Shown: one piece after another, positions 6,601 through 63,432 of the stretch
How the letters are laid out: each line of letters starts with the position of its first letter
How positions within the stretch are numbered: position 1 is the first letter of the stretch
IMG/VR virus record: IMGVR_UViG_3300021431_000087
Coordinates: 32,001-96,000 of that record
Source of the DNA: a virus
Lineage: Duplodnaviria > Caudoviricetes
DNA length: 64,000 nucleotides
Direction: 5' to 3' (one strand)
Program-made: the position numbers and the translations under genes
The notes under the pieces: generated by a model
Seen by the model: the letters and a program-made list of their open reading frames with translations, nothing else
Told to the model about the DNA's origin: nothing
Databases searched by the model: none

Positions 6601-6617
6601 TAGGATATGGCGTTGCT

Positions 6618-7079
6618 TTAAACGCTTGCATTGACAGATGCGGAACCAGTCCACAGTATCTGCTTTCCTGTCTCTGGTTTCAGCGACTCGAACTGATAGG
6701 TACGGATGATACCATTGTCGGAAGAGTAGCTGTCCTCATAGGAACACACAGACTTTGGAATCTTGAAACCAGGTGCCCCTGAAGAGAAATCCTCTGGCTC
6801 GAGCTCCACCTCCCATTCGCCAGAGACGACACCGTCTACTCCGTCAATCTCCCATTTGTTATGGCTGTCACCCAAACGGACTTGGAACTCTAATGTATAC
6901 TTGCCGCGCTTGTACTTCACGGCCTCTGCCTCGCCACCCTCGATGGTAGCCTCCATCTTCTCGCCCTTTTCCGTGGAGAGCTGCGTTGAGTCCTCTACGG
7001 GAGTATGGAAAGTGATGACTTGGCTTCCTGTAGCAAGATTCTTCACTTTAATGGTTGGAATACCCCAAGATATAATCAT
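6618..7079 (-). CDS. major tail (tube) protein
   Basis: ISWG..TPVEDSTQLSTEKGEK.EATIEGGE; synteny. Confidence 0.7.
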   Translation of the reverse strand: MIISWGIPTIKVKNLATGSQVITFHTPVEDSTQLSTEKGEKMEATIEGGEAEAVKYKRGKYTLEFQVRLGDSHNKWEIDGVDGVVSGEWEVELEPEDFSSGAPGFKIPKSVCSYEDSYSSDNGIIRTYQFESLKPETGKQILWTGSASVNASV

Positions 7080-53981: not shown

Positions 53982-54207
53982 GAAATCTCCATCCACGGGA
54001 GGTTTCGGCTGCCCAACCTGCTCTGGGTAGCCATTTTTTGCTAACTTATGATAACTGGTTGCCCATTTGTGATAAGGTATGCTAAACTCTTGCTAAATGA
54101 AGCTAAATTGCTCGCCTAAACGATTGTTTTTCAACCGTTTGCAATTACCTTTGCATCGAACCCTTAGAGGCCAAGAGCGCAAGGCCATAACACGGCGCAG
54201 CAAGAGT

Positions 54208-55116
54208 ATGAATACTACAAAGAAGTCATTAAGCGAGCAGGTAAACGAAGTGTTGAAAAGCAGGATGAGCCGCCCCAAGAAGCAGGAGGCCATCGTAAAG
54301 CTCGGCGTTACTCCTTTTGAGGCAATGTGCCTTGTGAGGAGTTACATGCCTGCCCCACGCCCACTACCATTCTCCTACACCTTCGGGGTAGAAATTGAAT
54401 GCGTAGGATGCCGATACACCGAGTTCTTCGCAGCAGCACGCCGCAACGGACTCGAGGTGATGGATCAGGTATACTACAACCACAGGGACATCCCCCAATT
54501 CAAGCTGACCACCGACTCGAGTATCAGCGGGCACAATCCCGCCGAGTGCGTCACCCCTGCCTTGAACGGCAACGACCAAGGTTTCGAGAGCCTCAAGGCT
54601 TGCTGCAAGAGCCTTCGGGAGATTGGCGCTACGACCAACTCCTCCTGCGGACTCCACGTACACATCGGGGCTGCAAGCCTTACCGACCTTGAGTACTGCA
54701 ACGTCTTCGTCAACTACATGAGGATGGAGACCGCCATCGAGAGCTTTCTTGCCCCGAGCCGCCGGGGTAGCTACGCAAGATGGTGCAACAGCCTCCGCAA
54801 CCACGAATACGGTGTTCTTCACGCCACCACGAAAGAGCAGATGCGCTACGCCTTGAACAGCGACCGCTACCACAGGGTAAACCCCTGCGCCTACGCCGCC
54901 CACAAGACCATCGAGTTCAGGCAGCACCAAGGCACTGCGAACTACACCAAGATAAGCCACTGGGTTAAGTTCTTGGGCAAGCTCGTAGAGTTCAGCAAGA
55001 CTACCCGCCTTAACGCCGACATCAACCGCATCGAGGACATCCCTTTCTTGAGCGAGAACGATAAAGCCTACTTCTGCAGCCGCAGAGCCGAATTCGAGGC
55101 TCGTGCCGCTCGGTAA
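54208..55116 (+). CDS. amidoligase (COOH-NH2 ligase type 2) family protein
   Basis: TFGVEIE, DSSI..ECVTPAL, SCGLHVHIG, RY..VN, TIEFRQH; promoter at 54146-54153. Confidence 0.9.
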   Translation: MNTTKKSLSEQVNEVLKSRMSRPKKQEAIVKLGVTPFEAMCLVRSYMPAPRPLPFSYTFGVEIECVGCRYTEFFAAARRNGLEVMDQVYYNHRDIPQFKLTTDSSISGHNPAECVTPALNGNDQGFESLKACCKSLREIGATTNSSCGLHVHIGAASLTDLEYCNVFVNYMRMETAIESFLAPSRRGSYARWCNSLRNHEYGVLHATTKEQMRYALNSDRYHRVNPCAYAAHKTIEFRQHQGTANYTKISHWVKFLGKLVEFSKTTRLNADINRIEDIPFLSENDKAYFCSRRAEFEARAAR

Positions 55117-55219: not shown

Positions 55220-55735
55220 ATGATAAAAGAAGAATGGAGACCGATAAAGGATTACGAAGGACTTTATGAGGTTAGCGACTTAGGCCGGGTTCGCTCTTTA
55301 AGAAACAAAAATCGCATCCTTAAACCTTCAAATAATCAAAACGGCTATCTGCAAGTGACCCTAAGCAAAGACAATAATATACAGGCGCTTCTTATCCACC
55401 GTCTTGTAGCAAATGCTTTTCTTGACAATAAACAGAATCTGCCACAAGTAAATCATATAGATGAAATTAGAACAAACAATTTTGTTACCAACCTCGAATG
55501 GGTTACAGCGAAACAGAACTTGAAGCATAGCAACGTCTGTAAAGTTATGAAAGCCGCTGCCGTAAAAGCTTTGGAGAAACCCGTTAATATGTATAACATG
55601 TATGGTGAGTTTGTGAAAAGATTTGAAAGTGCAACGAAAGCTGCGGACTTTATTGGTGGGTATCAACAGAATGTTAGTGCTTGCTGTTACGGCAAAATTA
55701 AATCCTACAAAGGATATGTATTTAGATTTGTTTAA
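55220..55735 (+). CDS. NUMOD4-HNH homing endonuclease
   Basis: EEWRPIKDYEGLYEVSDLGRVRS; HRLVANAF..VNHIDE..NN..NLEW. Confidence 0.92.
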   Translation: MIKEEWRPIKDYEGLYEVSDLGRVRSLRNKNRILKPSNNQNGYLQVTLSKDNNIQALLIHRLVANAFLDNKQNLPQVNHIDEIRTNNFVTNLEWVTAKQNLKHSNVCKVMKAAAVKALEKPVNMYNMYGEFVKRFESATKAADFIGGYQQNVSACCYGKIKSYKGYVFRFV

Positions 55736-55771: not shown

Positions 55772-56323
55772 ATGTGTGTAATAATAATTTCCCCAGCGGG
55801 TCATGCCCTCCCCACCAAGAAAGAGCTGAGGGCAGCGTTTAAGCGTAACCACGACGGATGCGGATTCGTCAGCGAGAGTGACCACTACAAGAGCCTCGAT
55901 TTTGAGGATTTCTACGCAAGGCTAAAGAAAGTCCCGAAGAACGAGAACTGCATCATCCATTTCCGGTGGGCTACCCACGGCAAGGTGTCCCTTGCCAATT
56001 GCCACCCGTTCTATGACGAGAAATCAAATACGTGGTTCATGCACAACGGCATCCTCGCCATCACACCCTACAAGGGCAAGACGGACAGCGAGACGGCTTT
56101 CAAGAAATACCTCGTCCCTGCTATCCGCACGTACGGTCTCTACTCGAAAGAGCTGCAGACCATCGCTCATAACATCATAGACTCGTCCAAGTTCGCATTC
56201 ATGCAGAACGGGCAGATTAAGACCTTCGGACGGTTCATTGAATACAATGGCTGTTACTACAGCAACCTATACCACCTGCCATACACCGCCTTCATCCAGA
56301 ATAGGTGGACGTACGCAGGTTGA
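55772..56323 (+). CDS. class II glutamine amidotransferase
   Basis: N-terminal MC, NHDGCG, HFRWATHG, NCHPF, HNG, TDSE. Confidence 0.9.
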   Translation: MCVIIISPAGHALPTKKELRAAFKRNHDGCGFVSESDHYKSLDFEDFYARLKKVPKNENCIIHFRWATHGKVSLANCHPFYDEKSNTWFMHNGILAITPYKGKTDSETAFKKYLVPAIRTYGLYSKELQTIAHNIIDSSKFAFMQNGQIKTFGRFIEYNGCYYSNLYHLPYTAFIQNRWTYAG

Positions 56324-59090: not shown

Positions 59091-59585
59091 TTAAGCATCT
59101 GCAAACACCTTCCCGTCATCAAGTGTTACTTGCAATTTCGTGTACTCACAATGGAATCTTTCTTTTAGTTTCCAAAAATAACGCCTACACGCCAACTTGC
59201 AGGCTTGCAGGTCATGAAGAAGATAGTTGCCACATGTCTCTGGTGTTGTGGCGGGCACTTCCTCTTGCTCGCTTATCCACCGTAGACACTCCATCGTCAG
59301 ATAGCGCATTTTCTCTACATCATATCCTTTGCGCATGATAACGTACATTCCCGTCAAGCACCCCATCGGGCCTACATAAACCACGTCATCCTTTACCACG
59401 CTATTCCTGAACCACGTAGCCATCAAGTGCTCGATGCTGTGCATGGCCGCAGGAGCGATGGCAGGCTCCTTGTTCGGCTCCGTGAAACGAAGGTCAAAGG
59501 TCGTAAAATCCTTATCCTCACGGGAAACATATATCCCCGGCTTCAACTTTGTGTGGTCAATCGTAAAACTTGCTATCGCTTCCAT
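59091..59585 (-). CDS. luxS: S-ribosylhomocysteine lyase (AI-2 synthase)
   Basis: SFTIDH, HSIEH, GPMGCLTGMY, CGNY..H. Confidence 0.95.
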   Translation of the reverse strand: MEAIASFTIDHTKLKPGIYVSREDKDFTTFDLRFTEPNKEPAIAPAAMHSIEHLMATWFRNSVVKDDVVYVGPMGCLTGMYVIMRKGYDVEKMRYLTMECLRWISEQEEVPATTPETCGNYLLHDLQACKLACRRYFWKLKERFHCEYTKLQVTLDDGKVFADA

Positions 59586-60855: not shown

Positions 60856-61443
60856 TGCAGAGTAGTATAGCAATGCGTAGAAGAACTCCCGTGACGGATT
60901 CCTTGCCGTGGTTCGACCCCACGGGCGGGAGCTATTCTCAGCTAAGTTTAGTAGAGCCTTGTGTAGACGAGACGAGTTTTGTTTAGCAAAGTTATGCGCA
61001 GTTTAGTTAAGACGAACTCCCACAATGGTTGTATGTAAGGTTCGATTCCTTCAGTGGGAGCATTTAGTCCAGATTCGTAAAGCACAGTGGAGTGTAGTAC
61101 AGTATGGCTCAGTTGAGAGAAGTTTAGTTCAGACCTGTACAGCAAAGACGAACTCCTATCATGGTGCAAGCATCGGTTCGATTCCGATGGTAGGAGCAAA
61201 AAGTTAAGTTCGGATTAGCAGAGTCCAGCGAAATATAGTTTAGCAGAGTAAAGAAGAACCCTCACTATGGTACAAGCCGTGGCTCGATTCCACGGGTGAG
61301 GGCAAAAAGTCCAGCAAAGACCAGTATAGCGAAGTGGTGTCTTGTATGGCTATGCAAAGCCATCCAAAGTTTAGCAAAGAACGGTTAAGTAAAGACGAAG
61401 GCAGTAACGGTTCACGTTGGGGTTCGATTCCCCGAACTGCCCA
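60856..61443 (+). ncRNA. array of 5-nt-periodic guide-like tracts separated by five mini-tRNA-like hairpins
   Basis: Tracts 60940-61014, 61066-61150, 61202-61256 and 61308-61397; hairpins 60886-60931, 61017-61060, 61153-61196, 61259-61302 and 61400-61441. Confidence 0.85.
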
Positions 61444-61980: not shown

Positions 61981-62012
61981 AGCCTGTCCGTGATGGATAG
62001 GCTCTGCTTTTT
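61981..62012 (+). terminator. intrinsic terminator closing the RAMP-array operon
   Basis: AGCCTGTCC-GTGAT-GGATAGGCT followed by CTGCTTTTT. Confidence 0.65.
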
Positions 62013-63432
62013 ATAGAAAATCTGACAATATTTGATCGTCAGACGCACCGCCTACAACCCCTCCTCTTTCAATAATCATCGTAAGGACATCTTCTGCGTC
62101 ATCATGTGCATTTCTTCCTTCCTTTCGGTAACTTTTCACGGATGAAGCGAACTCTGGCCATCGACGTTCCCAATCCACAGGAAATACAATCATATTGTTT
62201 ACTTCACAAGCCCTTGTGAAGATTCTGACATTTTTGTTGTGGTGCTGCGTGAAAGTAATAAAAGTCGTTTTGTGGTTTTCGTACTCACGACTTATACGTT
62301 CCACGTTTCTGGCAAAAGCCCTGCCTCCATTATTTGATTCAATGACACAATACCTTATCTCATATTTCGCTAAATCCTGCGCCAACATTTGTTCCGTTGC
62401 CTCTTGGCTTTTCTTTGTGTATATAACACTCGTCACGTAGTATCCATCTTTCATTGAAAGGTAGGTTATGCTACACAAATAATCCTCGCCAACATCTGCG
62501 GTGTCGCAACAACAGCACATTGTCCCCAGCTTGACGGGAGGTAAAACTTCATAAGTACGAAATGCGTGCTCATAAAGCAAGCCTTCTAAAGGCATAGGAT
62601 TTTGTTGGTATTGTGTTTGAAAAACATACGAATTGGCAGCATTTATCTTATCAAGTTCCTCAAGTGTATGCTTGTATGGCCACAGTGCTTCACGCTCTCC
62701 GTTCTCGTTTATCTGTATAACTGGCAGTGATATCACCCGCCACTCGTCTGGTTCTATTTCCTGCAAATAGCCGCAGAGGTCATGCTCATGCAAACGCTGC
62801 ATGATAATGATAATGGGTGTGTTACGGGAATTGACGCGGTTTCTGATTGTTGTTTCAAAACGTCGGTTCACACGCTCACGGACAACATCGGAAAGGGCAT
62901 CCTCCGGCTTGATAGGGTCATCGATAATGATCGCGCCACCAAAACGATACGGTTCACATTCCCTTTCGACAAGACCAGCACCGAAACCCGTAATCTGACC
63001 GAGCGTAGATGTGGCGTACAAGCCACCTCCTTGGTCGGTTTCCCACTGAGATTTCATATTCTTTCCGTAGGTGATACGGGTAGGATAGAGCCGTTGATAT
63101 TCTTCGTTTTGAACTATATTTTTTACGGCAATAGAGTTGTCTTGTGCAAGGTTGGCAGAATAAGAGAGGTGGATGAATTTGGCAGAAGGATTGACGGCTA
63201 ACCCCATAGCAATGAAGTTCTTTACTGCAAGTTCCGTTTTTCCATACCTCGGCGACAAATTAATAATAAGTTTATTACATTTTCCGTTAAGGACATCATC
63301 AAGGGCATCACAGATAAGCTTGTGGTGCCTGCCTATGATGAACTTCATGTCGTTGTTCTGCTTGAAGAAGTACCTTGTGAAGTTAAGGGAACTCTTCAGC
63401 GTCCAAGCCCTCAAAATGTCCGTGTCTGTCAT
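62011..63432 (-). CDS. terL: terminase large subunit
   Basis: Walker A SPRYGKT, IIIDDPIKP, MQRLHEHDL, YQQNP, ESNNGG, HDDAED. Confidence 0.95.
   Translation of the reverse strand: MTDTDILRAWTLKSSLNFTRYFFKQNNDMKFIIGRHHKLICDALDDVLNGKCNKLIINLSPRYGKTELAVKNFIAMGLAVNPSAKFIHLSYSANLAQDNSIAVKNIVQNEEYQRLYPTRITYGKNMKSQWETDQGGGLYATSTLGQITGFGAGLVERECEPYRFGGAIIIDDPIKPEDALSDVVRERVNRRFETTIRNRVNSRNTPIIIIMQRLHEHDLCGYLQEIEPDEWRVISLPVIQINENGEREALWPYKHTLEELDKINAANSYVFQTQYQQNPMPLEGLLYEHAFRTYEVLPPVKLGTMCCCCDTADVGEDYLCSITYLSMKDGYYVTSVIYTKKSQEATEQMLAQDLAKYEIRYCVIESNNGGRAFARNVERISREYENHKTTFITFTQHHNKNVRIFTRACEVNNMIVFPVDWERRWPEFASSVKSYRKEGRNAHDDAEDVLTMIIERGGVVGGASDDQILSDFL

Follow-up and report, generated by a model that had tools for sequence, protein, structure and literature searches.

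A VIPR-type guide in a rumen phage that probably specifies the 3' end of an amidoligase gene carried by satellite-like elements

Introduction

VIPR is a CRISPR-like DNA silencer, first described in 2026, whose components are a minimal RAMP protein (Vipr), an accessory gene (vap) and guide RNAs called vrRNAs (bioRxiv 10.64898/2026.04.26.720920). In Vipr an RRM core is combined with a G-loop and a thumb, and in the solved structures one protomer sits on each repeat and a gapped RNA-DNA hybrid lies inside a triplex. Published vrRNAs consist of GGY/NN pentamers followed by a structured tail, with the NN dinucleotides pairing with dsDNA and one target base being skipped per unit; in SUSP1, residues H17 and D177 of Vipr read G1 of the GGY repeat. 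Natural targets are found on either strand, mostly in coding sequence and with the skipped base mostly at the wobble position. They are called at an NN match of at least 80%, and no self-target exceeds that threshold. Binding of dsDNA and repression of transcription by the Vipr-vrRNA complex are known only for the SUSP1 and P. fulva VIPR. Other repeats are also on record, i.e. WGT/NN or TGH/NN in non-canonical or divergent VIPRs, according to the available part of the survey that reports them (bioRxiv 10.64898/2026.10.21.760802), and a variant consensus YNNNG.

The locus analyzed here most resembles the SUSP1/Felixounavirus type II VIPR (10.64898/2026.04.26.720920, 10.64898/2026.04.26.720927, 10.64898/2026.10.15.759431; PDB 36pp). 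Both have a homologous Vipr and accessory gene, and their guide RNAs are runs of pentamers, each with two variable bases, that end in a structured 3' tail; in both a single base is skipped at the wobble position, the phage's own copy is spared and the targets lie in a small integrative satellite-like element. By contrast, the scaffold is [A/T]G-H here and GGY in SUSP1, the tail is a tRNA-like minihelix here and a pseudoknot in SUSP1, and vipr and vap enclose all five vrRNAs. The host also differs, being a rumen Prevotellaceae, and an amidoligase gene is targeted in place of a recombinase or regulator. With the non-canonical VIPRs, as far as the available part of that survey goes (10.64898/2026.10.21.760802), the locus shares a WG-T/NN unit and an adjacent Vipr-like fold; the same part of the text holds no targets, tails or residue-level account. 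More distantly, Cas7 of class 1 CRISPR-Cas is likewise a RAMP with a G-loop and thumb that assembles into a polymer along a guide RNA and turns bases out of the guide-target duplex at regular intervals. Unlike those systems, the present locus has no cas1 or cas2, no repeat-spacer array and no nuclease, relies on a single small protein, and follows a 5-nt period in which only 2 bases pair, against 1 skipped target base. The mechanism would be that of the published VIPR code, and no new kind of system is revealed.

Organization of the locus

The window, i.e. the whole 64,000-nt stretch that was analyzed, is phage DNA and includes genes for a large terminase, an HNH endonuclease, YopX and DUF932 proteins. 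Its 630-nt non-coding stretch between the vipr gene (P0002) and the vap-like gene (P0003) is made of five units, each with a pentamer tract and then a tail of about 47 nt (Table 1).

Table 1. Positions of the features discussed in the text, numbered along the 64,000-nt window
Feature	Position	Strand	Description
Own amidoligase gene	54097..55116	+	PF12224
HNH/NUMOD4 homing-endonuclease-like gene	55220-55735		separates the own amidoligase and amidotransferase-like genes
Own class-II glutamine amidotransferase-like gene	55772..56323	+	amidoligase partner
LuxS gene	59091-59585		PF02664, E 4e-45; adjoins a metallophosphoesterase gene
vipr gene P0002	60275..60844	+	189 aa; RAMP-like; phmmer to PDB 36pp_D, E 1.1e-28; phrog_4652
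vrRNA 0	60859..60934	+	tract 0 of 5 pentamers (60859-60883) and tRNA-like tail (60884-60934)
Tract 1	60940..61014	+	15 pentamers; units 1-13 from the 5' end antisense to K-A-Y-F-N-N-R-R-T-S-L-N-stop
vrRNA 1 3' tail	61015..61061	+	7-bp acceptor-like stem CUCCCAC/GUGGGAG around T-arm-like hairpin AAGG-UUCGAUU-CCUU
vrRNA 2	61066..61199	+	tract 2 of 17 pentamers (61066-61150) and tail (61151-61199); matches amidoligase E-x-V-[ST]-P-x-L-x-G motif
vrRNA 3	61202..61305	+	tract 3 of 11 pentamers (61202-61256) and tail (61257-61305)
vrRNA 4	61308..61443	+	tract 4 of 18 pentamers (61308-61397) and tail (61398-61443)
vap-like accessory gene P0003	61474..61947	+	157 aa; phrog_5926
Large terminase gene	62011-63432	-

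The match of P0002 to the entry named 'SUSP1 Vipr protein' extends over residues 1-187 against 1-188. The protein keeps the G-loop GVGxxRxxxGRF and thumb R138 of Vipr and is 37% identical over its full length to Felixounavirus homologues, and its homologues occur in 130 phage records, mostly Felixounavirus. Its nearest solved and annotated relatives are SUSP1-family Vipr proteins. In addition, P0003 has a homologue in Escherichia phage wV8 (Felixounavirus; BLASTP, E 5e-9, 23% identity), and there too the gene comes after vipr. Given the Vipr homology of the flanking gene (36pp, E 1e-28), the array is read as a VIPR guide-RNA array and, on sequence grounds, the locus is a VIPR locus, probably nearest to the SUSP1-type clade. 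Contigs from RNA libraries of the likely source samples reach vipr alone; contigs cannot show transcription and thus bear on expression of the array neither way.

At the positions of SUSP1 H17 and D177, the G1 contacts, P0002 has N and T (residues 17 and about 176). The Vipr proteins of two relatives with AGT repeats (L084 and L085) also have N and T, and H and D are kept in two others with GGC repeats (L086 and L087). The exchange of H/D for N/T together with AG-type repeats possibly reflects a switch in scaffold specificity, with two clades only as its basis. A natural switch of this kind, pairing AG-type repeats with N17 and T at the G1-reading positions of SUSP1, could guide the engineering of orthogonal VIPR scaffolds.

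The five tails have a 6-7-bp outer stem, which differs among them by compensatory changes, and a T-arm-like hairpin. The tail element has an acceptor-like stem and a T-arm-like hairpin (GGTTCGATTCC). All five have the look of a tRNA-like minihelix with a loop of UUCGAUU type, and tails of a like kind are present in L084 and L085. ARAGORN predicts no tRNA anywhere in the window, and no Rfam family reaches its gathering score there. The tails were also considered as full tRNA genes, a candidate we rejected since they form only the acceptor-like and T-arm-like helices and no cloverleaf with an anticodon arm. Tails of this type could recruit RNase P, RNase Z or the CCA-adding enzyme, and one possibility is that host RNase P or RNase Z cuts the array into single vrRNAs. 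The available portions of the VIPR literature make no mention of tRNA-like tails or of maturation by RNase P or RNase Z.

Structure of tract 1

Tract 1 is 75 bases long and consists of 15 in-phase pentamers of the form [A/T]G-[T/C/A]-NN: AGCTA AGTTT AGTAG AGCCT TGTGT AGACG AGACG AGTTT TGTTT AGCAA AGTTA TGCGC AGTTT AGTTA AGACG. The scaffold has G at position 2 in 15/15 units, A (12) or T (3) at position 1, and never G at position 3, with positions 4-5 free; T at position 1 is seen in tracts 2 and 4 as well. The terminal AGACG/AGAAG unit is constant across all five vrRNAs and is probably part of the tail, not of the guide. Folded alone, the tract does no better than shuffles (z -1.3).

The reverse-complement NN series decodes to Y/stop, K/N, A, Y/stop, F/L, K/N, K/N, R, R, T, R/S, L, K/N, Y/stop. 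A preliminary description of this DNA had given the same series and the same translation; the former is exact, with the tail-proximal AGACG unit left out, and the latter agrees with the codon classes that we decode.

Comparison with the phage's own genome

That description had compared tract 1 with the resident amidoligase, and its C-terminus, DKAYFCSRRAEFEA, is indeed found at 55060-55101. The identity of 5/14 dinucleotides (16/28 bases), which had been called weak alone, is at chance level. Scored over the full tract, the homologous site (55057-55100) reaches 16/30. The best score of tract 1 anywhere in the 124-kb phage genome is 20/30 (67%), at least 17/30 is reached in 55 places, and shuffled guides attain a maximum of 19.4 +/- 0.7 in the same genome. 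The own-gene match of tract 1 is therefore at chance level and reflects homology only, and there is no self-targeting by tract 1 at an NN match of at least 80%. The best two in-genome sites (genome 29666-29709, 20/30, and window 6615-6658, 19/30) were rejected as targets since they score at the level of shuffled guides, and the first of them is out of wobble register with its ORF.

Within the phage genome, tract 2 scores highest at the resident amidoligase (54520-54569, 23/34) and tract 4 at the resident terminase gene (62546-62598, 24/36). Guides that are aimed at homologues in other elements should look like this, with their best own-genome match at the phage's own homologue. The genomes with tract-1 targets carry no homologue of the window's terminase, so tract 4 would be aimed at something else. 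For tracts 0 and 3, nothing above chance turned up in the phage genome, in the amidoligase loci, in the metagenome matches or within the 80 kb around the target element.

Tract 1 matches amidoligase 3' ends in other elements

A total of 249 amidoligase homologues were scored against the tract-1 codon classes, and one clade (EQKAYFNNRR[TA/AS]LN-stop), with proteins that end in EQKAYFNNRRTALN-stop or EQKAYFNNRRASLN-stop, fits them at 12/15. All top protein-level matches are located at the C-terminus and end exactly on the stop codon. Among the first 120 homologues the observed maximum is 11, and shuffles of the guide order give a mean maximum of 7.0, with 0/300 reaching 11.

The preliminary description had suggested that tract 1 targets the 3' end of the amidoligase family, and this is borne out in other elements rather than in the own gene, with 25-27/30 bases matched in nine loci. 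Specifically, the DNA-level score is 25/30 in a Prevotellaceae MAG contig (L002) and in L003, L004, L092 and L093, 26/30 in L088-L090, and 27/30 in L095. The background is 17-19, and shuffled tract-1 guides reach 20.1 +/- 0.7 on the same DNA, with a maximum of 23. The clade for DNA retrieval was picked after the protein-level match, and hence the DNA scores of the viral and genome loci are not fully independent of it. When 0, 1, 2 or 3 target bases are skipped per unit, the maxima over 83 amidoligase loci are 19, 25, 20 and 20 for tract 1, and 21, 27, 21 and 22 for tract 2. The targets follow the published 1-nt-skip rule. The skipped third bases vary across targets (GAG/GAC/GAA, CAA/CAG, AAG/AAA, AAC/AAT), and most of the positions that are read are conserved.

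The best target, L095, matches 13 consecutive dinucleotides exactly, from K-A-Y-F through to the stop codon. All 3 of its mismatches fall within the two tail-proximal units, so that the score becomes 27/28 without the constant AGACG unit. These two units match no sampled target.

A metagenome scan, seeded with 10 dinucleotides of the tract-1 guide itself, returned 8 places, 6 of which (L088-L090, L092, L093 and L095) are amidoligase 3' ends. The other 2 (L091 and L094) are unrelated; with 20 bases fixed, about that many would be expected by chance. L095 also matches at the six bases left open by the seed. Hits of this kind could have lain in unrelated loci or scored no better than chance, an outcome that the preliminary description had set against its own reading; most are amidoligase 3' ends, and the scores exceed those of shuffled guides. 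A search of IMG/VR for exact matches to gapped series of 9-11 dinucleotides from tract 1 or tract 2 gave none, because the Q codon differs from the TA of the guide and the T-S pair varies among targets. L001, the sole close relative by the phage's own amidoligase, was rejected as a target, as it scores only 17/30; the record that holds it (G001) has no VIPR locus.

Directly 5' of tract 1 lie five bases without the xG scaffold (TTCTC, 60935-60939). The TC would pair with the GA that follows the stop codon in targets of L095 type, giving a match of 14 units, and this extension may be chance (1 in 16).

Tracts 1 and 2 match different members of one gene family

In every locus with a good tract-1 match, the best same-strand tract-2 site lies 522-528 nt upstream and shares its codon register. 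The preliminary description had placed both guides on the same gene family, strand and register, and had proposed looking for a tract-1 match about 500 bp downstream of that of tract 2; tract 1 indeed fits best at the amidoligase 3' end, at the distance just given. The description had further spoken of two guides against one gene. This part stands for the gene family and fails for a single gene, since no sampled gene reaches at least 80% on both tracts (0/91 loci, even when the constant unit is left out), and the importance of the amidoligase in phage competition that the description drew from it does not follow. Elements with the best tract-1 scores (83-90%) reach 59-69% on tract 2. Tract 2 is best matched in L008 (27/34, 79%) and in L010, L013 and L014 (76%), where tract 1 scores 57-77%. 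The two guides thus address separate subclades within the amidoligase family, and having both may widen coverage rather than hit one rival twice.

The guides also turn over among relatives. A 1989-nt contig from run X3 has vipr, tails and vap about 97% identical to those of the phage, with tract 1 replaced by 65 other letters, tract 2 by 72 and tract 4 by 99. In run X6, yet another tract 1 is found, with the xG-T-NN phasing kept.

The element that carries the target

In the target elements, the amidoligase gene and its amidotransferase-like neighbor are separated by 45 bp. The phage has a homing-endonuclease-like gene between its own two homologues (Table 1). In L089 the gene pair adjoins two Cro/CI-type HTH genes, and PAPS-reductase-like, ParB-like and small-terminase-like genes and an integrase are found further along. 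Another such element is present in the Prevotellaceae genome G002 (contig C21, 172117-187663). It spans 15.5 kb between 26-bp direct repeats, has host genes on either side and is located 47 nt from a tRNA-Pro(CGG) gene. This element also carries an AAA_25 helicase-like protein, a CHC2 primase, a RusA-like resolvase, HTH regulators and a TerS-like gene, and it has no capsid, tail, portal or large-terminase gene. Its gene content suggests a phage satellite or small integrative element.

The phage has 24/26 bases of the direct repeat of the element (GTGTTCCGTTTTTGTTCCGCTAAA), 44 nt from its own integrase gene. The phage integrase (genome 4865-6181, outside the window) is 63% identical to the integrase of the element (G002:C21:171997-187663; L097/L098). 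Judging from these similarities, phage and element probably use one attachment site in the same hosts. More tentatively, and with considerable doubt, the phage and the 15.5-kb element might form a pair of helper and satellite, or might at least compete directly for one integration site beside tRNA-Pro. The amidoligase-amidotransferase operon of the element would then act as an interference or hijacking factor that the phage needs to silence. If true, such a role of the operon would explain why two of the five guides are aimed at the amidoligase family.

Proposed mechanism and alternatives

We consider it very likely that tract 1 is the guide of a phage VIPR vrRNA that specifies the last 13 codons and the stop of the amidoligase gene of satellite-like elements in rumen Prevotellaceae. 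By analogy with SUSP1, Vipr protomers would bind the vrRNA, one per pentamer, with the [A/T]G-H scaffold bases buried and each NN dinucleotide presented, and the resulting filament would pair with dsDNA, skip every third target base and silence transcription. Read in this manner, tract 1 would spell K-A-Y-F-N-N-R-R-T-S-L-N-stop of the amidoligase gene on integrase-bearing elements of about 15 kb. The footprint would cover the last part of the amidoligase gene, which the co-transcribed amidotransferase-like gene follows after 45 bp, and a bound filament would be expected to block transcription of that downstream gene too. For RNP assembly, DNA binding and silencing by this locus we draw on the literature, and we infer that P0002 would bind the [A/T]G-H scaffold, including the three units with T.

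Scanning an A/T-rich guide, rich in Lys, Asn and Arg codons, over many sequences might by itself yield a match to amidoligase 3' ends. The chance-level identity with the own gene from which the idea arose, the two seeded metagenome matches in unrelated loci, and the choice of the target clade after scores were seen would all fit such a coincidence. We nonetheless regard it as highly improbable, given that the scores of 25-27/30 stand above the maxima of shuffled guides on the same DNA, that only a skip of one base works, and that all top matches share one homologous site, in frame and ending on the stop codon. Moreover, the six unseeded bases of L095 match as well, and the gene family was foreseen from tract 2.

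Two further alternatives accept the match and differ in what the guide does. It could be an antisense RNA whose substrate is the amidoligase mRNA and not dsDNA, and tracts 1 and 2 are both complementary to the amidoligase sense strand and could pair with its mRNA. This is very unlikely in our view, as the published VIPR binds dsDNA and has natural targets on either strand, and as the best own-genome place of tract 4 (weak, 24/36) is opposite the terminase coding strand and cannot pair with that mRNA; gapped pairing of 2 in 3 bases would require a Vipr filament either way. Tract 1 might also be a decaying or inactive guide, i.e. the relic of a past conflict, that binds no circulating target. 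The three units with T instead of A at scaffold position 1 would agree with decay, as would the mismatch of the two tail-proximal units in every sampled target and the lack of a 30/30 target among those found. However, the published cutoff of 80% is exceeded by 27/30 (90%), and by 27/28 with the constant unit set aside. Units with T in the first place are likewise found in tracts 2 and 4, and the available part of the survey of non-canonical VIPRs lists WGT/NN among its scaffolds. The terminal unit, being common to the five vrRNAs, is probably tail rather than guide. We regard a relic as a very unlikely reading of tract 1.

With tract 1 taken as a guide against the amidoligase 3' end, the published skip-one code predicts, from sequence only, a concrete natural target in DNA of an uncultured rumen phage. 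What is new is modest, namely the target class, a satellite-like rival that probably has its att site in common with the phage, the tRNA-like tails, and the N/T-for-H/D exchange with AG repeats. The amidoligase-amidotransferase operon of a satellite-like element in Prevotellaceae would be a new class of target, and it offers a handle on the function of the widespread, uncharacterized amidoligases of phages and plasmids.

Pentamer runs of the canonical type are also visible in phage wV8 (L100 1480-1720, NC_012749.1), where GGT/GGC-NN units occupy the intergenic region upstream of the vipr homologue. The vrRNA is unannotated in the RefSeq record of 2009, in which the only nearby feature of this kind is a repeat region labeled 'DR_4'.
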